Positions 3,508-37,415 of a stretch of DNA of 64,000 nucleotides are shown here, one piece after another. The notes under the pieces were generated by a model. That model saw only the letters and a program-made list of their open reading frames with translations. It made no database searches and was not told the origin of the DNA. A program made the translations under genes and the position numbers. The DNA lies in assembly GCA_013204385.1 (NCBI GenBank), contig JABMNY010000013.1:517-64516 (forward strand), written 5' to 3'. The stretch is from Candidatus Uhrbacteria bacterium (GTDB lineage Bacteria > Patescibacteriota > Patescibacteriia > UBA9934 > GWF2-40-263). Within the stretch, counting starts at the first letter, position 1. Each line of letters opens with the position of its first letter.

Positions 3508-5301
3508 ATGGATCAATCTCATATTCGGAATTTTTGCATTATTGCTCACATTGATCATGGGAAGTCGACCCTTTCGGATCGACTTTTAGAAATGACTGGA
3601 TCTGTGGATGCGCGCAACATGAAGGCGCAGATTTTAGATTCGATGGATCTCGAGCGTGAAAAGGGAATTACTATAAAACTCGCGCCTGCTCGCATGGTCT
3701 ATAAGGACCACACGTTGAACCTGATCGACACTCCTGGGCATGTTGATTTTACGTATGAAGTGAGTCGATCTCTTGCGGCAGTTGAGGGAGCAATTCTGCT
3801 TGTAGATGCCTCGCAAGGTGTTCAGGCTCAAACAATTGGAAATTTGTACTTGGCAATGGAGGAGAATCTGGAAATTATTCCTGTTCTGAATAAAATTGAT
3901 CTTCCAAACGCAGATGTCCCAGCGCGCACAGCAGAACTCGTTCAGCTCATTGGATGTAAGCCTGAAGAAATTTTAGCGGTGAGTGGGAAAACAGGGGAAG
4001 GGGTTCCTGAACTTTTGGAGGCAATCATAAAACGTATCCCTTGTCCTACGGGAGATATTTCCGCACCCGTGCGCGCACTTATTTTTGATTCGTTTTATGA
4101 CGACTATCGAGGAGTCATGGCGTATGTGCGTGTGGTGGATGGTGCGATTGAAAAAGGAAAGCGGATTAAAATGATTGCCACAGGCTTTGATATTCAAGTG
4201 TTGGAAACAGGAGCCGTTACCCCCAATGGACTTAAGGGTGTTCAAACACTTGAGTGTGGTCAGATTGGGTACATTGTAACAGGACTCAAAGAAATAAATG
4301 GATGTCGCGTAGGAGATACGATTACGGTCCCAGCAGAGCATCTTCCGAACGCGCTTCCTGGATACAAAGAGGTAAAGCCTATGGTCTTTGCTGGAGTGTT
4401 TCCAGAAGAAGGAGATGATTTTAATCGGCTTCGGGAATCGATGGAACGTTTGAAGTTGAATGATTCAGCGCTTGTCTATGAATCAGAACATTCCCCAGCT
4501 CTTGGATTTGGATTTCGATGCGGACTCTTGGGGATGCTTCACTTGGAAATTTTGAAAGCACGTCTTGAGCGTGAGTTCCATATCGATCTTGTTGTGACCG
4601 TGCCATCTGTCGCGTATGAAGTGTATTTGCGAAATGGAACAAATATCCGAATTAAGAGTCCTCTTGAGCTTCCGGATCCTTCACTCATTGAGTACGTGAA
4701 AGAGCCTTGGGTTAAAATTGATATTGTTTCTCCAACGGAATACATCGGTGTCATCATGCAGTTACTGCAAGAGCGTCGTGGAATCTATGAAACAACGGAG
4801 TATCTCTCAGGAGATCGCGCGATTTTGCATTATCAAATTCCTCTTGCCATGATCATTGTTGATTTTTACGATAAGTTGAAAAGCATTTCTGCAGGATATG
4901 CTTCACTCAATTACGAACTTATCGATTATCGTGAGGCAGATGTGGTGAAACTTGATATGATGGTGGCAGAAGAACCTGTTGATGCCTTTTCCACACTTGT
5001 TTATCGTGATGAGGCGGAGCGTGCAGGACGTCGAATTGCAAAAGTTTTAAAAGAGACTATTCCTCGTCAGAATTTTGTGATTAAACTTCAAGCGTCTATT
5101 GGAGGAAAAGTTGTGGCCTCCGAGCGCATTTCTGCGATGCGAAAAGATGTGACGGCGGGATTGTATGGGGGAGATGTTACACGAAAACGAAAACTGCTTG
5201 ATAAACAAAAGAAAGGAAAGGCTCGCATGGCGGCAATGGGGAAGGGGAAAGTAAATATCCCGACAGACGTGTATTTAAAAGTTCTTAAAAGAGATTCTTA
5301 A
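3508..5301 (+). CDS. lepA: Translation elongation factor 4 (LepA)
   Basis: IRNFCIIAHIDHGKSTLSDRL G1 motif, DTPGHVDF, NKID, and the LepA-specific C-terminal region. Start placed at the internal ATG 3508, which matches the canonical LepA N-terminus. Confidence 0.9.
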   Translation: MDQSHIRNFCIIAHIDHGKSTLSDRLLEMTGSVDARNMKAQILDSMDLEREKGITIKLAPARMVYKDHTLNLIDTPGHVDFTYEVSRSLAAVEGAILLVDASQGVQAQTIGNLYLAMEENLEIIPVLNKIDLPNADVPARTAELVQLIGCKPEEILAVSGKTGEGVPELLEAIIKRIPCPTGDISAPVRALIFDSFYDDYRGVMAYVRVVDGAIEKGKRIKMIATGFDIQVLETGAVTPNGLKGVQTLECGQIGYIVTGLKEINGCRVGDTITVPAEHLPNALPGYKEVKPMVFAGVFPEEGDDFNRLRESMERLKLNDSALVYESEHSPALGFGFRCGLLGMLHLEILKARLEREFHIDLVVTVPSVAYEVYLRNGTNIRIKSPLELPDPSLIEYVKEPWVKIDIVSPTEYIGVIMQLLQERRGIYETTEYLSGDRAILHYQIPLAMIIVDFYDKLKSISAGYASLNYELIDYREADVVKLDMMVAEEPVDAFSTLVYRDEAERAGRRIAKVLKETIPRQNFVIKLQASIGGKVVASERISAMRKDVTAGLYGGDVTRKRKLLDKQKKGKARMAAMGKGKVNIPTDVYLKVLKRDS

Positions 5302-17977: not shown

Positions 17978-18065
17978 GGAGAGGTCGCATAGTGGTCTAG
18001 TGCGCCGCCCTGGAAAGGCGGTACACCGCAAGGTGTCGGAGGTTCGAATCCTCTCCTCTCCTCCA
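17978..18065 (+). tRNA. tRNA-Ser (anticodon GGA), class II with a long variable arm, CCA encoded
   Basis: Cloverleaf folded by hand: acceptor GGAGAGG/CCTCTCC, D-stem GCAT/GTGC, anticodon stem CCGCC/GGCGG with loop CTGGAAA, a 16-nt variable arm, and T-arm GGAGG TTCGAAT CCTCT. Confidence 0.8.
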
Positions 18066-21317: not shown

Positions 21318-23102
21318 ATGGATCCAAAAGATGAAATTAAACAAAAGCTCGATATTTTCGATCTTGTAAGCGAGTACGTTGTTCTTAAACCGTCTGGTTC
21401 AACGGGGTTTAAGGGCCTATGCCCGTTTCATTCTGAAAAGTCGCCTTCCTTCCATGTTTCCCAAGATCGTCAAAATTGGCATTGTTTTGGGTGTAATGAA
21501 GGAGGGGATTGTTTTAGTTTTGTCATGAAAATTGAAGGCATGACCTTCCCGGAAGCGTTGATGCATTTAGGAAAAAAGACGGGCGTTGAAATTCGACGGT
21601 TACCAACAACGCAAAGCAATGTGCGTTCGCGCATGCTTCAAGTAAACGATCTTGCTCAAAAGTTTTATCGGAAAGTGCTGTTGGAATCGACCAAGGCGGG
21701 GAGTGCACGAAGCTATGTGGAGTCACGGAATATTCCCGTAGAGCTTGGAGAACGATTCGGGATTGGGTTTGCGCCAGACGAATGGGATACACTTTCAAGT
21801 TTTTTGCAAAAACGTGGATTTTCAGAATCTGAATGTGTGCAAGCGGGACTGAGTATGAAGCGTAAACAAGGCTCAGGAGTGATTGATCGTTTTCGAAACC
21901 GCCTCATGATTCCACTCCGTGATCATCATGGAAATACCGTTGGGTTTACCGGAAGGTGCATGCCGGGAGATGCTCATGGGCCAAAGTATATGAACTCCCC
22001 TGAGACGCCTGTGTATTCTAAGAGTCGACTTTTGTATGGGCTTGATTTGGCAAAACGGGCGGTGCGAGACGCAGAGTGCATTGTGATTGTAGAGGGAAAC
22101 TTGGATGTCGTTGCTTCCCATCTCGCAGGTGTTGAGCAGATTGTTGCGTCAAGTGGAACCGCATTCACAAAAGACCAACTCGAACTTCTTAAACGCTATA
22201 CCCAGACGATTGTCTTTGCGTTTGATTCAGATGCCGCCGGGTTCACAGCAGCCAAAAAAGGCATCAGTCTTGCGCGCACTATGGGATTTGATATTCGTGC
22301 GGCGATCTTGCCTGAAGGGGTGAAGGATCCCGATGAACTTGTTCAAAAGGATCCAACACAATGGAAAGAACTCGTGAATCATTCCCAGCCCATTATGGAG
22401 TTTCTTATTTCACAAGTGACGAGAGGAAAAGATCTCCGGAATATTGATGATAAACGTATTGTTGAAAAGGAGTTATTACCGGCGCTCAGTGAGATGATCT
22501 CTGTTGTTGAGCGAGAACATTGGCTTCAGGTTGTTGCAGATTTGCTTCAGACTCCTGTTGATCAACTTCGACCATCCATTCCTGTTGTTTTGCCTCAGAC
22601 AGAGACTATGGAGCCTGAAAAGGAGGATAAAGCTGATAAGGAAGACCAACCTGTCTCAAAAGAAGCAAAAGCGCTTACACTCCTTTTTGGACAAATACTC
22701 ACATCTGAAGAGGTTTTTGATACGTTTCACAAGCGTTTAGAGAAGGTTTCTCGAAATAATGAGAGTTGGGAAGCTCTTTACAAAATAGCTGCTGAGACGT
22801 ATGCTGAGGCTAGTCAACCAACACAAAAATCATTTTTTTTGCGGATTCGTGACATGTTAGACGGCCACCCATTACAAGCGTCCCTTGAGGAGCTTCTTGA
22901 TACATCATCATTCATGGCCGATGAAACATTTCAGGATCTTCCGCCACAAAAGGTGTTGGAACATATCGACCATCTATTTTCTTCTCTTGAAGAGCATGCG
23001 CTTGGAAAACGTCGTGAAATCCTTGCTCGTGATCTTCGACAAGCAGAAGCAGTAGGAGACACCGAAACTGTCTCTCGTCTGCTCACTCAATTAAACGAAT
23101 AA
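21318..23102 (+). CDS. dnaG: DNA primase DnaG
   Basis: CHC2 zinc finger (CPFHSEKSPSFHV...CFGC), a TOPRIM domain (EGNLDVV...DSD), and a position upstream of rpoD. Confidence 0.9.
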   Translation: MDPKDEIKQKLDIFDLVSEYVVLKPSGSTGFKGLCPFHSEKSPSFHVSQDRQNWHCFGCNEGGDCFSFVMKIEGMTFPEALMHLGKKTGVEIRRLPTTQSNVRSRMLQVNDLAQKFYRKVLLESTKAGSARSYVESRNIPVELGERFGIGFAPDEWDTLSSFLQKRGFSESECVQAGLSMKRKQGSGVIDRFRNRLMIPLRDHHGNTVGFTGRCMPGDAHGPKYMNSPETPVYSKSRLLYGLDLAKRAVRDAECIVIVEGNLDVVASHLAGVEQIVASSGTAFTKDQLELLKRYTQTIVFAFDSDAAGFTAAKKGISLARTMGFDIRAAILPEGVKDPDELVQKDPTQWKELVNHSQPIMEFLISQVTRGKDLRNIDDKRIVEKELLPALSEMISVVEREHWLQVVADLLQTPVDQLRPSIPVVLPQTETMEPEKEDKADKEDQPVSKEAKALTLLFGQILTSEEVFDTFHKRLEKVSRNNESWEALYKIAAETYAEASQPTQKSFFLRIRDMLDGHPLQASLEELLDTSSFMADETFQDLPPQKVLEHIDHLFSSLEEHALGKRREILARDLRQAEAVGDTETVSRLLTQLNE

Positions 23103-23139
23103 GCGCCATTGTGCGTGATCTTTTTATTCTGTTCTGCGT

Positions 23140-24483
23140 ATGCCGACCAAATCATCTGGCAAAGCCCGTAAGGATTCCGCTGGAAAGACAATCAAAAAAG
23201 TTGCAAAGAAAGTTGCAAAGAAGGTTCCTGTAAAAAAGAAACCTGTCGAAAAAAAGACCACCAAAAAGACTCCGGTAAAGAAAGTTGCTATTAAGAAAAC
23301 AGCCTCACCAAAGGTTGCAAAAAAATCAATCATTTTTCACAAAAAAGTTGCACCTCCAAGCGTTGTTCGATCAACGGGCCGTTACAAACGATCAGAACCT
23401 CCTTCTGTGGATGTGTTAGATCGTCTTGTTCAAAAAGGCATGCGCCGTGGATATATTACAGAGAATGAACTTCTTTTTACGTTTGTTCAATTAGAAGACT
23501 ACGTTGAGGCATTTGAGGATTTTTTGAATGAGTTAGAGCGCGTGGGAGTTCACTTTGTCGAGGTTAAGGAGGGAATTTTAGGACGCGCAAAGGAACGTGA
23601 CGATGTATATGAAAAAATTCGCATGAGCGAGGATGCTCGTCGAATTCCTCTTCCTGAAATCACTCAGGATTCGATTCAGATGTACCTGCGCGAGATCGGA
23701 AAAATTCCACTTCTCACAGGAGAACAAGAAGTTGGTCTTGCTAAGCGAAAAGAACGAAACGAAAAAGAAGCAGAGCGACGACTGATTGAAGCCAATCTAC
23801 GCTTGGTTGTTTCTATCGCAAAAAAATTCGTTGGAAAATCCATGTCACTTCTTGATCTTATTCAAGAAGGAAACATTGGTCTCTTTCGTGCGGTCAAGAA
23901 ATTTGAATATCGAAAAGGATACAAGTTTTCAACCTATGCGACTTGGTGGATTCGCCAAGCCATTACACGTGCGCTTGCCGATCAATCTCGAACCATTCGT
24001 ATTCCGGTTCACATGGTTGAGACGATTAATAAGTTTCAACAAATCGAGCGTCAACTCATCCAAGACTTGGGTCGCGAGCCACTTGCTGAAGAAATTGCGG
24101 CCGAGATGGGTCAGCCTGTTGATAAGGTGCGTCACATCCGAAAGATTTCTCAGGATACAGTTTCACTTGAAACAAGTGTCGGAGATGATGATGAGGATTC
24201 AAAACTCGAAGACTTTCTTGAGGACGTAAAGACAATTTCACCAGACAGAAACGCCGCTCGAGAGCTCTTAAAGGATTACGTGAATCAATCCATGATGGAA
24301 TTGACACCACGTGAACAAAAAATTCTTGAGATGCGATTTGGTCTGATTGACGGCGTGAGTCATACCTTGGAAGAAGTAGGTCGAGAATTCGACGTGACAC
24401 GTGAACGTATCCGTCAAATCGAAGCAAAAGCCCTTGAAAAAATTCAAGCCAATCCCCTTATTGAAAAGTTAAGAGACTACTAA
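23140..24483 (+). CDS. rpoD: RNA polymerase primary sigma factor (sigma-70/RpoD) with a Lys-rich N-terminal extension
   Basis: Regions 1.2 through 4 are present ([21 protein letters not shown], and the region 4 HTH). The N-terminus is built of KKVAKKV-type repeats. Confidence 0.9.
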
Positions 24484-28351: not shown

Positions 28352-28464
28352 GAGGACTCTTCCATATGATTGACAAAATGCCCTAAATAGGGTATTTTGT
28401 TTTGTTCAAACGAGGACTTTCTCGATTGAAAACGCTCATTAAACACTCACTTTCAGGAGATGCA

Positions 28465-30255
28465 ATGAACTTCGCCCTCAATCTCTTTCTGTTGGTCGGC
28501 CTTCTGGGCTGTCAGGAAACTGCGGAGGTTCAGATGGACCCCGTGAGCATTCCTTCTCCCAAGCCCCTGCCTGCTCCTCAGGTCGACGAGAGCTTCATGA
28601 ACCCCTCGGCTGTCGAAGCCTGGCGGAGCGAGATCACGACCCTGATCGCCCACCGAGCAGGGGCGGTGGATCCAAACCTGCTCTTCAGCTACAGCACGAG
28701 CTTTTTGGTCCAGGGAGGGAAGCCAGATCCTCTGATTGGCAACCCTGACATCTGGAACGCAAACTACGAAGTCTCCTTCGAGTTCGAGCCTGAAGTGACC
28801 CTCCCGAGTCTCGACGAGGCCAAGCAGTTGGAACTGGCTGACGATGAATGGGAGGCAGCACAGATCTTCATCATCCATGACAAGATGGTTGATGCGGCTA
28901 GGTGTGCCGTCAAGCTCGAGGAAGAGTCTCAGTGGAAGGTGGTCGCCATGATCGCCGTGCACACTGGAGACTTCGAAATGCTCGATCGCGCGACTACACA
29001 GATGGTCAATGCGAACTGGACCACCAAGACGGTGGACGTCATTCGCTACGCCATCGAGCAGGGAAAGCCCGAGGCAGCTCGACGCATTGCAAAGACTCAC
29101 GGATGGGAGCTGAAGAACGTCATTGATTCCCAGCTCGTCCGGATGATGGCGAAGAGTGGCGACCAGACCGAGCTCGAGGTACTCATCAAGCAGGAGCTCG
29201 ATGATTCCCAGCTGGAGGAGGTCGTTGCGGACATCGTGATGCTCAGCAAGTCGAAGCCTGACATCGCTCGCGCCTACGCGAGTCGACTTCTGCGTCTTCC
29301 GGAGGCGAATCTCTTCATCTGGACGGAGTGTCGCGAAGGTTGCTACTCCTCAGCGGTGAGGGGCTCGATCGAGCTCTTCCAGTTCGTGAAAAGCGATCCT
29401 GAACTCAAGGCTCTCTACCTGCAACATCAGAAGCAGGTGTTCGCGGACATGTTTCCTGCGAACGAGACTCAGAAGTCCGTCACAGCAGGTGTTGATCCCT
29501 CCTCCTATGTGGGTTTCGGAAGCGACATTTGGGGAATGGACGGGGAATACTCTTCCAATAATTTCCTCTACACTCACCTCGTCCATGTCCGTGCGATGCG
29601 TGACGCGGAGCTGACCGCAACCTGGACCTCGATTCTCGATGGGTTGGCCAAGAAGAAGGGCTTCCAGGGGCAGAGCCTGGCCTTCGAGGTGCAGTTTGGG
29701 CGTTACGTGTTGGGACTGCCTTTCACGGCCGATGACCCCAACCTCGATGGGAGTGAGAAGATCGCACTTGGGACGCTCAAAGGGGTTCCCGCTCCGGACA
29801 TGTCCGGAGTCTGGACCATGTGGAACACGATGCCTCCTACCAGTGAAGAGTTGTCTCAGATGAGCTGGCTCTACCAGTTCCTGACCCGTGGGACGATCTC
29901 CTCCCAGCGTGATGCTCAGATCCGGACCGAACTCGGCATCGAGTCGGTCCCAGGTGAAGATGTTCCCCTCAACAAAGAGCTTCAGACAAGGTTCTTCCAG
30001 AGTCTGATGGCACGCTACGAGTTTGGCTGGGACCTCACCAGTGCATTCGACCGCGCGTTTCGCGCTCACGCGACCAACGTTACCGCTCAACGGTTGCGGA
30101 GGGAGCGTGGCTTGCCTGAGATCAATCTCTACCCTGATTCCCAGGAAGAGCTTGTGGAGTTGATGGCCCCGAGCCTGATGCTTCTTGAGCAGAAGCTCCC
30201 GGCGCTTTACGTGCAGTGGCGCCAGAAGCACCCGGTTCCGATCCCGACGCCCTGA
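28465..30255 (+). CDS. High-GC hypothetical lipoprotein (596 aa)
   Basis: ATG 28465 with an AGGAG SD. Lipobox LLVGLLGC. The region is about 58% GC against a background of about 44%. Confidence 0.5.
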   Translation: MNFALNLFLLVGLLGCQETAEVQMDPVSIPSPKPLPAPQVDESFMNPSAVEAWRSEITTLIAHRAGAVDPNLLFSYSTSFLVQGGKPDPLIGNPDIWNANYEVSFEFEPEVTLPSLDEAKQLELADDEWEAAQIFIIHDKMVDAARCAVKLEEESQWKVVAMIAVHTGDFEMLDRATTQMVNANWTTKTVDVIRYAIEQGKPEAARRIAKTHGWELKNVIDSQLVRMMAKSGDQTELEVLIKQELDDSQLEEVVADIVMLSKSKPDIARAYASRLLRLPEANLFIWTECREGCYSSAVRGSIELFQFVKSDPELKALYLQHQKQVFADMFPANETQKSVTAGVDPSSYVGFGSDIWGMDGEYSSNNFLYTHLVHVRAMRDAELTATWTSILDGLAKKKGFQGQSLAFEVQFGRYVLGLPFTADDPNLDGSEKIALGTLKGVPAPDMSGVWTMWNTMPPTSEELSQMSWLYQFLTRGTISSQRDAQIRTELGIESVPGEDVPLNKELQTRFFQSLMARYEFGWDLTSAFDRAFRAHATNVTAQRLRRERGLPEINLYPDSQEELVELMAPSLMLLEQKLPALYVQWRQKHPVPIPTP

Positions 30256-30342: not shown

Positions 30343-30501
30343 GAGTAAAAGAGGGTAATTTGTAGATATAAGAGGAGTTTGCAACGATCTGAGACTTAGG
30401 GCGATATACTTATGCAAGGTCGACAGAATGTCGGGCTTACAACGTAAATCTCAAATGTTGTGAGCCTAGACATTCACTTAACTTGTAACTTACATGATGA
30501 T

Positions 30502-31128
30502 ATGGAAGAACCTCTGATTGTGAATGCTCAATCAGACCCAGATGCATTCGGGCGGTTGTACGATATGTACTACCAACCCGTTTTTGGGTTCATGTACAAC
30601 AGAACGGGGAATGCTGAGCTTGCAAAGGACTTAACAAGCGAAACGTTTTTTCAAGCTTTGAAGAATCTCCATCGTTATAAACCTCGCAAAGGTGCCAGTT
30701 TTAAATCTTGGCTTTTCGCGATTGGAGTGGCTCAAGTTGGAAATTATTATAGGAGTCGCTCAAAATTTCTTGAGGTCACGACAGATGAGGCTCCAGAACT
30801 GATTGGCCGAGATGATTTTAGACCCGATATTGCCTATAGAATGGGAGAGGATGAGAAAGAGCTTGAAGCACAAATTACCTTGCTTCGTACCATGATGAGT
30901 AAACTGAACCAAAGGCAACAAACCATTTTGACACTTCGTTTCTTCTCGCACATGACAGTCCCTGAGATTGCAACAACCATCGGAATGAAAGAAGGGACAG
31001 TTAAATCACATATTCACAGAGCATTAAAGAAACTTCAAATTCTCATGTTACAAGAAGAGGAAGAAGTACAGGCACGACAAATGGAGGTTTTACCAAAAAA
31101 ATATGTCCGACAAACAGCTCAAAATTGA
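30502..31128 (+). CDS. ECF-type sigma-70 family sigma factor
   Basis: Region 2 (FGRLYDMYYQPVFGF) and a region 4 HTH (LTLRFFSHMTVPEIATTIGMKEGTVKSHIHRALKKL). The likely start is ATG 30502. Confidence 0.75.
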   Translation: MEEPLIVNAQSDPDAFGRLYDMYYQPVFGFMYNRTGNAELAKDLTSETFFQALKNLHRYKPRKGASFKSWLFAIGVAQVGNYYRSRSKFLEVTTDEAPELIGRDDFRPDIAYRMGEDEKELEAQITLLRTMMSKLNQRQQTILTLRFFSHMTVPEIATTIGMKEGTVKSHIHRALKKLQILMLQEEEEVQARQMEVLPKKYVRQTAQN

Positions 31129-31555
31129 AGAACTCTTAGAGGTTATGGGTTCAAAGGAACATGTCGGCAGTTCAGAGCATCGCTATGAACTACGACGGAG
31201 TCTTTTATGTTCTCGATTCTTTGCTGCGGAAACTGCTTGCATGAGTCGTTGGGATAAAATGATGACCTATACAGCACCGCTTGTGGCTGGGGGGATGATG
31301 GTTGGTGTATTTACGTTAATGGTTGTGTATGCTCCTATTGAGCCAGAAGTAGGTCCGCAGACACGTTTTTCAAAAGAATCATCACTTGAGGCAGATCAAT
31401 ATGCTTCTTTAGAAGTGCTTCCAATTAATGCGGAGGATTTTCTTTCAGATCCAGCACAACCAACAGTTCAACTGGTTGGATTTCAAACAGAGCAGTCAAG
31501 ACCTGTTATGCATTATACACCGCTTACTTCACAGGAATACGTTCGTACGCAGTAA
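31103..31555 (+). CDS. Putative anti-sigma factor (single-TM, overlapping the ECF sigma gene)
   Basis: Overlaps the sigma gene 3' end by 26 nt and carries one TM helix (APLVAGGMMVGVFTLMVVYA). The assignment rests on context only. Confidence 0.35.
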   Translation: MSDKQLKIEELLEVMGSKEHVGSSEHRYELRRSLLCSRFFAAETACMSRWDKMMTYTAPLVAGGMMVGVFTLMVVYAPIEPEVGPQTRFSKESSLEADQYASLEVLPINAEDFLSDPAQPTVQLVGFQTEQSRPVMHYTPLTSQEYVRTQ

Positions 31556-31575
31556 TTCCTTATTGTATTGTCGTA

Positions 31576-31604
31576 TATTTACAAAAGGGTTTTTCAGTTT
31601 TATA
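31576..31604 (+). promoter_or_regulatory. Near-consensus sigma-70 promoter: TTTACA, 17-nt spacer, TATACT
   Basis: -35 at 31576-31581 and -10 at 31599-31604. The predicted TSS is about 31611. Confidence 0.45.
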
Positions 31605-31610
31605 CTAGAG

Positions 31611-31947
31611 ATAGCTCCACGGAACTAATTTGGGCAAACATTTGGTAAAGGGCTTAGAGCTGTTCTTGCTTTGGCAGAACATGAGAGCCCCGCGGTAAAC
31701 CCAAGAGTTTGTGAATTTGGCCCACTTTCGACTTACGGGACCCCGCCAGTTCCTCGTTGTACGTCTGAGTACAGCTTCGTCGCTGGCACCCCGTGCACCA
31801 AAATTGGTCTCAAATTCACAAACTCTTACGAAGGGTGCAGCAAATTCGATACGATGCTTCGGTGAGTCAACTGAATCATTGTGGAGAACGCGTACTGGCC
31901 CATGGTCAGTACCCGACTTTCGCGCGCCAAATATAGGGCTGTGGAGT
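31611..31947 (+). ncRNA. Candidate structured non-coding RNA of about 340 nt, class unassigned
   Basis: No credible ORF in the interval. The 5' end AGCUCCACGG pairs with the 3' CUGUGGAGU, and this helix extends to AUUUGG/CCAAAU. There is an internal 17-bp perfect long-range helix (aagagtttgtgaatttg at 31703-31719 pairing with caaattcacaaactctt at 31816-31832). A strong terminator follows immediately. Confidence 0.4.
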
Positions 31948-31948
31948 A

Positions 31949-31990
31949 AAAAACTCCTGATATGAAGTTTCATATCAGGAGTTTTAATTT
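31949..31990. terminator. Bidirectional rho-independent terminator
   Basis: aaaaaactcctgatatgaag ttt catatcaggagtttt is a perfect 14-bp stem with A and T runs on both sides. It sits between the convergent RNA locus and the minus-strand gene at 32119..32625. Confidence 0.7.
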
Positions 31991-32118
31991 TGATGTATCA
32001 GCCCCGACGTTCTTCTAAGTCGGGGTCCCGACCCTCTATTTATGATATTAGGCGTCGGGATCGATGTTCGTTCCTTTGTTTTCTGAGAAAGAAAAAAAGC
32101 CCAAAGGCTTCGAGAGGG

Positions 32119-32625
32119 TCAGGAGGACTGCGTGAGAGTCTGGTAGACTTCTGTGATTCGTTTTGGCAGACGTTTGGGTGCCAGCTCATCATCGCCAAGA
32201 AGGGTGGTCTCGAGTTCTTCGAGAAGTGAAAGAATCTCTTCAGCACGAGCTACGTGTGTAGTGTAGTGACTCAGTGCTCTGTCGAGGGTGCCGACCGTCA
32301 AGGGGTCATGCTCCTTACTTCTTGCAAGGGTAGATCTGTAGCCATCCATTTCGTGTTGGCCCACAGCGTACCATTCGGCGATCGTCTGGTGGCTCTGTTC
32401 CATGGCTTCCAGATGTAATGGAAGGACGCGGAACACAAGTTCATCGAGCTGCCCGTTAGCAGTCTCCCAGTTGGTCCCATACATGTGAGGCTTCAGACGT
32501 TCGAAAATAGCGTGGGCACGTAGACGCATTCGATGCGTCAATGTGTGAGCATCGAGAAGGCGATATACCCCCAGCAGAAGAAGAATGCAGATGACGACAA
32601 TGAATTGTGTCACAATTGAGGACAT
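32119..32625 (-). CDS. Hypothetical single-TM membrane protein (168 aa), elevated GC
   Basis: GGAGG SD upstream of the ATG at 32625, an N-terminal TM helix, and about 53% GC. Confidence 0.4.
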   Translation of the reverse strand: MSSIVTQFIVVICILLLLGVYRLLDAHTLTHRMRLRAHAIFERLKPHMYGTNWETANGQLDELVFRVLPLHLEAMEQSHQTIAEWYAVGQHEMDGYRSTLARSKEHDPLTVGTLDRALSHYTTHVARAEEILSLLEELETTLLGDDELAPKRLPKRITEVYQTLTQSS

Positions 32626-36890: not shown

Positions 36891-37415
36891 TTGTCTATGC
36901 AACTTCCATTTCGTCCAAAACAGCAGATGAAGCAACTTCTCCAAAAGGATGAACCGCTTTATCTTACGAAGGAGGGAATAGAAAAGTTCCATCGTCGACT
37001 TAAACAAATTGCGGAAGTGGAATTACCGCAAGCCATTGAGGATGTCAGACGAACAGGGGAGTTTGGGGACTTCTCTGAGAATGCCGAATATCAAGAAGCA
37101 AAGTGGCGCATGAGACGGCTTCGTGATCAACAAACATCCATCACAGAAAAACTAAAGATATCAATACTCATCGAAACGACATCCGAAGACGAAGGGATGG
37201 TACAAATGGGCTCAAGGGTCTGTATAAAGAAGCAGACCGGGGAAGCGAAGTCTTTTCAGATTGTAGGACCAGAAGAGACAGATCCATTGAAAGGAAGGCT
37301 CTCCTTTAAATCCCCATTGGGAGCCCGTCTAATGGGGCGCACAGTGGGAGAGGAAGTTACCCTTTCAAGTCCATCAGGCGAGACGGTTTATCAAATCATT
37401 TCCATTGACTCTTAA
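36891..37415 (+). CDS. greA: Transcription elongation factor GreA
   Basis: GDFSENAEY motif in the coiled-coil domain and a C-terminal FKBP-like domain (SFQIVGPEE...SPLGARLMG). Confidence 0.85.
   Translation: MSMQLPFRPKQQMKQLLQKDEPLYLTKEGIEKFHRRLKQIAEVELPQAIEDVRRTGEFGDFSENAEYQEAKWRMRRLRDQQTSITEKLKISILIETTSEDEGMVQMGSRVCIKKQTGEAKSFQIVGPEETDPLKGRLSFKSPLGARLMGRTVGEEVTLSSPSGETVYQIISIDS

Follow-up and report, generated by a model that had tools for sequence, protein, structure and literature searches.

A candidate family of structured non-coding RNAs in Candidatus Uhrbacteria with a five-way junction core and a lineage-specific insertion

Comparative genomics has revealed a number of orphan structured non-coding RNAs in bacteria, such as the raiA motif RNA and the larger OLE, ROOL and GOLLD RNAs. 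Among the small RNAs (sRNAs) of enterobacteria, DapZ and MicL are of the 3' untranslated region (UTR) type, with their own promoter and a terminator shared with the upstream gene. The 6S RNA forms a rod whose central bubble resembles an open promoter. Here we describe a locus at positions 31576-31990 of a 64-kb stretch of DNA (the window) from a genome of Candidatus Uhrbacteria, which belongs to the Candidate Phyla Radiation (CPR)/Patescibacteria. Very probably, the locus is a real gene for a new structured RNA, and it carries a lineage-specific insertion. Similar to the raiA, OLE, ROOL and GOLLD RNAs, this RNA is a stand-alone unit with a covarying multi-helix fold, conserved junctions, variable loops and a restricted taxonomic range, and its function cannot be read from its sequence. 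Unlike them, it has no match in Rfam 15, an Uhrbacteria host, and its own closing stem (P1-P2-P2b) and five-way junction. The family appears to be new within the known kind of orphan structured bacterial RNAs.

The RNA appears to be read from the + strand, from its own predicted sigma-70-type promoter to its own predicted intrinsic terminator. As noted in an earlier sequence-only reading of this DNA, the promoter is close to consensus: a -35 box (TTTACA), a 17-nt spacer and a -10 box (TATACT) at 31578-31606 match 10 of the 12 consensus positions. Its position predicts a transcription start at ~31612-31614. All 19 homologs have a TAnnnT -10 hexamer at a constant distance from the terminal helix P1, and in many of them it is preceded, 17 nt upstream, by a TTGCnn -35 box. 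The terminator (31950-31989) is a hairpin (31950-31985) followed by UUUUAAUUUU. The same hairpin had been described as a perfect 14-bp helix, and it is longer, with 16-17 bp. An A-tract before it and a U-tract after it make it bidirectional in form. A strong hairpin and a U-run directly follow P1 in 16 of the 19 homologs, and the terminator sequences are unrelated. No obvious intrinsic terminator follows P1 in L005 (4734-4793), L036 (952-1011, - strand) and L038 (8294-8353, - strand); the first two belong to group B, a subclade with GGUUAUC/UAGAACC junction variants. The RNA body in the window is 338 nt long and the locus is single-copy within the window. When the whole stretch of the RNA was folded, the + strand gave -159.3 kcal/mol (z = -9.8) and the - strand -137 kcal/mol (z = -6.1). 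This 22 kcal/mol difference, the many conserved G-U pairs in the family helices and the covariance model scores given below all point to the + strand as the RNA strand.

Homologs were found by synteny and by sequence pattern. The 150-aa protein encoded just upstream of the RNA is named in NCBI as a hypothetical protein of Candidatus Uhrbacteria bacterium and has ~60 relatives. Contigs of seven relatives were taken for the synteny search, and six of them carry an RNA homolog directly after the gene. These homologs align with the first and the last third of the RNA in the window; the middle (31703-31827) is absent. Pattern scans of genomes and metagenomes were built on the invariant stretches of the RNA. 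The genome scan yielded five further Uhrbacteria or Parcubacteria loci and one contig labelled Gammaproteobacteria, the rest being chance matches. The metagenome scan yielded 16 loci: 14 real homologs, one chance match and one divergent copy. After removal of duplicates there were 19 distinct close sequences and the divergent copy L038. Two invariant motifs are 144-149 nt apart in each homolog versus 273 nt in the window. Therefore, the family core is ~212 nt long (it measures 209-215 nt in each of the 19 other copies) and a length of 338 nt is found in the window copy alone, so that an RNA class of ~340 nt, as proposed earlier, does not hold.

The divergent copy was left out of model building, and the covariance model recognized it with 30.5 bits (E about 1e-6). 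It keeps P1, P2, the junction motifs and an extended -10 promoter, and the protein neighbouring it is named Candidatus Uhrbacteria. A search for its further relatives gave none: the flanking 168-aa protein has no homologs, and the contigs anchored on its alpha-2-macroglobulin gene carry an identical RNA. The RNA pattern had no match in viral contigs. So far as searched, the family appears to be confined to Candidatus Uhrbacteria. The contig labelled 'uncultured Gammaproteobacteria bacterium' (L021, CAZELN010000038.1) shares both the RNA and the Uhrbacteria gene order with L025, a Candidatus Uhrbacteria locus; it is probably a mis-binned contig.

In our model the core is a closing stem (P1, P2 and P2b) and a five-way junction with four hairpins, P3-P6, all on the + strand. 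In P1, GCUCCACGG (31614-31622) pairs with CUGUGGAGU (31939-31947). Its 9 pairs are formed in 96% of cells, 2 pairs show double changes (CG to UA), and its sequence is largely conserved, L038 included. In P2, CUAAUUUGG (31625-31633) pairs with CCAAAUAUAG (CCAAAU(A)UAG, 31927-31936), with 98% of cells paired and almost no variation. Together these helices are the pairing of the 5' and 3' ends, extended by AUUUGG/CCAAAU, that had been recognized in the window sequence. Directly after the P2 5' strand is the invariant junction GCAAACA (31634-31640), which faces CUUUCGCGAG in an invariant internal loop between P2 and P2b. The string UUUGGGCAAA is invariant in all 20 sequences. P2b was predicted by RNAalifold; its strands UUGG (31642-31645) and CCGA (31913-31916), both invariant, would pair to close the five-way junction. 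The 3' strand continues through the junction CUUUCGCGCG into P2, and CCCGA and GCCA.AU are invariant in this region (31913-31936).

The four hairpins vary more. P3 (31650-31690) is a two-part hairpin, with an outer helix (31650-31655/31685-31690), an inner helix (31661-31669/31674-31681), a tetraloop of the YUUG/UUCG type and an asymmetric internal loop that is conserved (AGAAC on one side, UGA on the other). Changes on both sides occur in 12 of its 15 pairs, and 95-99% of cells are paired. It is followed by the junction J3/4, CGCGGUAA (31691-31698), in which CGG U is invariant and the variants UUAU (group B) and UACG (L027 and L032) occur. J3/4 and J4/5, GCAGCAAA (31837-31844), are conserved in the alignments A4 and A6. 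Between them is the P4 arm (31699-31836). The base pairs common to the family are those of its base, ACCC (31699-31702) with GGGU (31833-31836), and all four covary; the P4 loop is just 3-8 nt long in the 18 close homologs. P5 (31845-31888), identified by folding and pair counting, is a long hairpin of three segments in which 31845-31863 pairs with 31870-31888. Separate folding gave the same three-segment hairpin in every homolog, and 14 of its 18 pairs change on both sides. P6 (GUACUGG...UCAGUAC, 31892-31912) abuts the P2b 3' strand with no spacer; both sides change in 5 of its 6 pairs, and the share of paired cells is 100%. The conserved nucleotides are thus located in the junction strands, the P3 internal loop and P1/P2, and all four hairpin loops are variable. 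A pairing of J3/4 with the 3' junction could be drawn by hand only in shifting registers and is not convincing. A pairwise covariation screen for additional tertiary or pseudoknot pairs was not convincing either: it gave nothing beyond isolated column pairs, such as A6 columns 259/392, that are linked to a single subclade.

This architecture is supported by strong covariation, which the sequence-only reading had named as a check to be made. RNAalifold on a MAFFT alignment, in which the P5 region was misaligned, predicted 49 pairs, 23 of them with compensatory double changes. A covariance model (R1) of 212 positions and 65 pairs was built. It scored its own members at 167-212 bits and the window copy at 187 bits, and found a single site in the window, with reverse-strand matches at 24 bits or below. 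In the model-based alignment 94.1% of cells are paired, versus 36-46% when partners are slid. Double changes occur in 39 of the 65 pairs, versus 13-20 with slid partners, and the covariation score is 0.416 versus 0.065-0.097. None of 500 shuffles reached the observed value on any of five measures. The shuffle controls overstate the significance because the sequences are related and come from one lineage; the slid-partner control does not have this weakness. RNAalifold on the model-fitted alignment (A6) predicted 60 pairs, 33 of them compensatory, and recovered the same helices, P5 among them. Because A6 was fitted to the model, this check is weaker than the run on the MAFFT alignment. P3-P6 covary strongly and P1 a little. 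P2 and P2b are outside the reach of covariation because neither varies.

The RNA does not belong to a catalogued family. Rfam 15 at gathering scores found nothing but a tRNA-Ser in the window, and the homolog loci were also without a match to the RNA. At E<=10, an 801-nt region (31400-32200) and the insertion-free 226-nt copy L001 gave only chance matches, to the terminator or the P6 hairpin. A literature search, by topic and by sequence string, returned no description of the RNA. The lack of an Rfam family, the strong covariation and the absence of a conserved reading frame (see below) bear out the proposal that this is a discrete, promoter-to-terminator structured non-coding RNA without a catalogued class.

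The window copy differs from all 19 other copies by a lineage-specific 125-nt rod-like hairpin in the P4 loop (31703-31827, + strand). At its base is a perfect 17-bp helix (31703-31719 with 31811-31827), so the most eye-catching feature of the window is a private insertion. The complementarity had been noticed earlier and is real; its second arm had been placed 5 nt away, at 31816-31832, and it is not a family feature. The 137-nt stretch enclosing the insertion (31697-31833) adopts a rod-like fold that starts from the 17-bp helix (-52.5 kcal/mol, z = -7.4). Two Joint Genome Institute (JGI) contigs from different samples carry the insertion without a single base difference, so it is unlikely to be an assembly artefact. 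Two same-sense copies of CCC(G)ACUUUCG that had attracted attention are present (31721-31730 and 31913-31922), but one is in the private insertion and their match is at chance level, scoring 15.0 versus a shuffle mean of 15.2 and reached by 55% of shuffles. The insertion has no significant similarity to the core, and an origin as a nested duplication of the core was rejected. No relatives of the insertion were found in the window, in ~350 kb of related loci or in viral contigs, where two 18-mer matches are chance.

The most parsimonious explanation is that the insertion was gained in this lineage. P4 probably tolerates it because this arm is peripheral and exposed to solvent. The insertion could have arisen as a mobile hairpin resembling a miniature inverted-repeat transposable element (MITE), which landed in the P4 loop as a unit and may be removed from, or irrelevant to, the mature RNA. 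Its perfect 17-bp terminal inverted repeats, which suggest a recent origin, its presence in a single lineage and its G+C content (~52% by our own count versus ~44% in the genome) are consistent with such an element. However, the searches described above gave no second copy, and no clear target-site duplication was seen at the borders. The P4 arm of L038 is also longer, so the length of P4 varies anyway, and helix extensions are common in CPR structural RNAs (PMC8172020). We consider such a mobile hairpin, as opposed to a gradual helix expansion, possible but less likely than not.

The neighbourhood of the RNA is conserved on its 5' side. Directly upstream are the gene for an extracytoplasmic function (ECF) sigma factor, identified by Pfam (30460-31128 as listed, + strand; a JGI gene call implies a start at ~30502), and the gene for the 150-aa membrane protein (31103-31555, + strand), which has no Pfam match and is assigned as an anti-sigma factor by position only. 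In 18 of 18 close homolog loci the RNA is directly behind this pair, on the same strand, at a distance of 15-147 nt, and the -10 box likewise starts 15-147 nt after the anti-sigma stop codon. Loci that were found solely through the RNA pattern show this linkage too. Downstream of the RNA, the genes differ among the homolog loci. No terminator-like site was found between the anti-sigma stop and the RNA (31555-31611), so the RNA should also arise as the 3' end of the operon transcript and its terminator would also be the operon terminator.

These features raise the possibility that the RNA is a structured 3' UTR of the ECF sigma/anti-sigma operon, acting in cis on mRNA stability or termination. 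In its favour, the RNA is immediately behind the pair, on the same strand, in each of the 18 close homologs, and no terminator was seen between them. As in DapZ and MicL, the promoter either overlaps the 3' end of the upstream coding sequence or comes right after it, with the -35 box inside the anti-sigma open reading frame (ORF) in several loci, and one terminator serves both the mRNA and the RNA. As with the sigma-E-linked sRNAs, the upstream operon encodes an ECF sigma factor of the envelope-stress type. However, DapZ and MicL are short and weakly structured, with a conserved single-stranded seed and Hfq, whereas the Uhrbacteria RNA is a compact 212 nt with no conserved loop. A five-way junction of this size is far more elaborate than known 3' UTR stabilisers. 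In addition, a -10 box, usually accompanied by a -35 box, is conserved in all 19 copies and its distance from P1 is fixed. L038, the divergent copy, retains this promoter in a different place: its RNA follows an alpha-2-macroglobulin gene, on the strand opposite to DnaG-RpoD and far from any ECF sigma gene, and is thus not in a 3' UTR position. Conversely, the Uhrbacteria locus L007 has the sigma pair but no RNA. A purely cis-acting 3' UTR is therefore unlikely.

We also considered two other cis-acting functions. A riboswitch or cis-regulatory leader was rejected: the next gene is on the opposite strand, convergent with the RNA, in the window, and on the opposite strand in most homolog loci. 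A riboswitch-like anti-terminator was rejected as well. Complementarity between the 5' arm of the terminator and the 3' strand of P1 is limited to the window and L021, and no conserved anti-terminator alternative was seen among the unrelated terminators.

Overall, a stand-alone structured non-coding RNA gene, together with the functional picture outlined below, is in our judgement the likely best explanation. Several points weigh against it. L038 and L007 weaken an obligatory link between the RNA and the sigma pair, and the link could simply reflect a gene order that related genomes have conserved. The family is also narrow, with related sequences that all come from a single candidate lineage. 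Because P2 and P2b are invariant, covariation gives them no support, and an alternative to P2b, AAUUUGGG with CCCGAYUU, is possible; the duplicated AUUUGG and CCCGA/CCAAAU elements could re-pair. The transcript ends are predictions, and likewise the fate of the insertion. Finally, a duplex search of the RNA against the start region of the ECF sigma gene gave energies equal to those of shuffled controls.

In the wider gene order, DnaG and RpoD are followed by an ATP-binding cassette (ABC)/MacB exporter, a 617-aa protein, the ECF sigma factor, the anti-sigma factor and the RNA, and further on by GreA and a DEAD-box helicase. The DnaG-RpoD region (21318-24483) and the GreA region (36891-37415) thus flank the RNA. 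The divergent copy L048 is located a few kb downstream of DnaG-RpoD, on the opposite strand. The 617-aa protein (28402-30255) has no Pfam domain and is encoded in a stretch of raised G+C content (0.536 versus ~0.44). Most homolog loci have it, conserved at 31-45% identity, with the MacB-type exporter on one side and the ECF sigma gene on the other. A motif, TGCAAGGTCGA, is found at 30413-30423 upstream of the ECF sigma gene and, likewise upstream of the sigma gene, in L002, L006 and L008. This motif could represent an ECF-type promoter of the operon itself, or an operator. On the 3' side, the spacer at 31990-32118 contains several short G+C-rich hairpins on CCCCGAC/GTCGGGG-like repeats and a second terminator (32111-32096) for a minus-strand gene. 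The convergent gene at 32119-32625 (- strand) encodes a 168-aa protein with no Pfam match and no tblastn match in the homolog loci.

Could the RNA be a highly divergent housekeeping RNA, such as RNase P RNA, 6S RNA, transfer-messenger RNA (tmRNA) or signal recognition particle (SRP) RNA, that standard models miss? CPR RNase P RNAs are known to escape such models: they have been detected only beneath the noise cutoff of the model, and their helices are extended or missing (Lui et al. 2021, PMC8172020). The Uhrbacteria RNA resembles bacterial and CPR RNase P RNAs in its paired 5' and 3' ends, its conserved junction strands and its large lineage-specific peripheral helix extension (PMC8172020). 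Unlike them, it has no P4 pseudoknot, no CR-I/CR-V sequence and no P3 hairpin between P2 and the core, and the core is just 212 nt. The only junction-closing helix is the nested 4-bp UUGG/CCGA. With no hairpin between P2 and this helix, the element order P1, P2, P3 hairpin, P4 is not found, and RNase P was rejected. The RNase P P4 strands (GGAAAGUCCGG... and ACAGAA.CCGGCUUA) are absent from 31576-31990 on both DNA strands with up to 3 mismatches, in agreement with the sequence-only reading, in which they were not found either. RNaseP_bact_a and RNaseP_bact_b had no match to E<=10, a cut-off that does not include very low-bit hits such as those in PMC8172020.

The other candidates fared no better. 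For tmRNA there was neither an Rfam match nor an ARAGORN prediction; in the whole window ARAGORN reported just the tRNA-Ser (anticodon GGA, 17978-18065), which is the only RNA gene in the window recognized by standard tools. For SRP RNA there was no Rfam match and the hairpin loops are not conserved. For 6S RNA there was no Rfam match, and the four covarying hairpins on a five-way junction do not make up the rod and central bubble expected of it. The strings GGUAAAC and GCCAAAUAUAGGG, which we take to come from the specificity domain of RNase P RNA from E. coli, were a lead only, and GGUAAAC is not invariant even within the family. With only chance Rfam matches at E<=10 for both the window copy and the insertion-free L001, the suggestion of a divergent housekeeping RNA finds no support from models, P4 strands or topology and is very unlikely.

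A protein-coding origin of the region, through a 122-aa minus-strand ORF (31605-31973) or the short plus-strand ORFs, is barely credible: the 122-aa ORF, which the sequence-only reading had missed, covers the whole RNA in the window, but its frame contains 1-5 stops in the 18 close homologs, its start would fall inside the terminator hairpin, and the substitutions in the helices are compensatory. Most frames are interrupted by stops in most homologs and none is open across the family. The variable columns are distributed over the three codon phases as 52, 50 and 49, with no 3-base periodicity. The conserved protein frame that would have spoken against a non-coding RNA was looked for and not found. 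In L008, gene-calling software had placed a 71-aa antisense ORF on top of the RNA homolog (4562-4777, - strand). The antisense ORF of the window is an accident of the insertion. Neither it nor that of L008 is conserved, and both look like false gene calls from an unannotated RNA.

What the RNA does can be proposed only tentatively. It would be made constitutively from its own promoter and, in addition, with the ECF sigma operon. Because conservation is in the junction core and not in the loops, the folded core might bind a protein or a small ligand, and the RNA could act in trans as a ribonucleoprotein or a sensor-type RNA. Variable loops and invariant junctions would be the pattern of a protein platform, a ligand pocket or a catalytic centre rather than of a seed RNA. 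In the family, all hairpin loops are variable and the junction strands alone are conserved; the target search covered the sigma gene start region. A loop- or seed-mediated antisense mechanism seems less likely. The RNA may be functionally tied to the stress and transcription circuit of the ECF sigma factor. We hold the trans-acting, protein- or ligand-binding role with low confidence.

The likeness to 6S RNA and Ms1 deserves consideration. Similar to these RNAs, the Uhrbacteria RNA is a stand-alone RNA of ~200 nt with paired ends and a housekeeping-type promoter, and its neighbourhood is rich in transcription genes, with DnaG-RpoD upstream, an ECF sigma factor adjacent and GreA downstream. It differs from 6S RNA in having four covarying hairpins on a five-way junction and no Rfam 6S match. 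The gene is located between rpoD and greA and directly behind an ECF sigma/anti-sigma pair. Its product could be a CPR-specific RNA of ribozyme or riboswitch grade whose core binds RNA polymerase, a sigma or anti-sigma factor or a small-molecule signal, as a structurally new counterpart of 6S-type RNAs in ultra-small bacteria, with P4 as an arm that by nature tolerates insertions. We consider this quite improbable, and any role at RNA polymerase is speculation.

Our analysis bears on a group of organisms with tiny genomes and very few described non-coding RNAs. The RNA is likely important to its hosts, because the invariant junction core is kept while the neighbouring proteins are only 40-60% identical. 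It adds a new five-way-junction fold, for which the covariation is already sufficient for model building, and the family is an annotation marker where gene callers now place false ORFs. The insertion is a natural experiment: the P4 tip accepts 125 extra nt, and this site could serve for tags or for scaffolds in cryogenic electron microscopy (cryo-EM). If the link to the ECF sigma factor is functional, the RNA would represent a new kind of RNA component in envelope-stress signalling.

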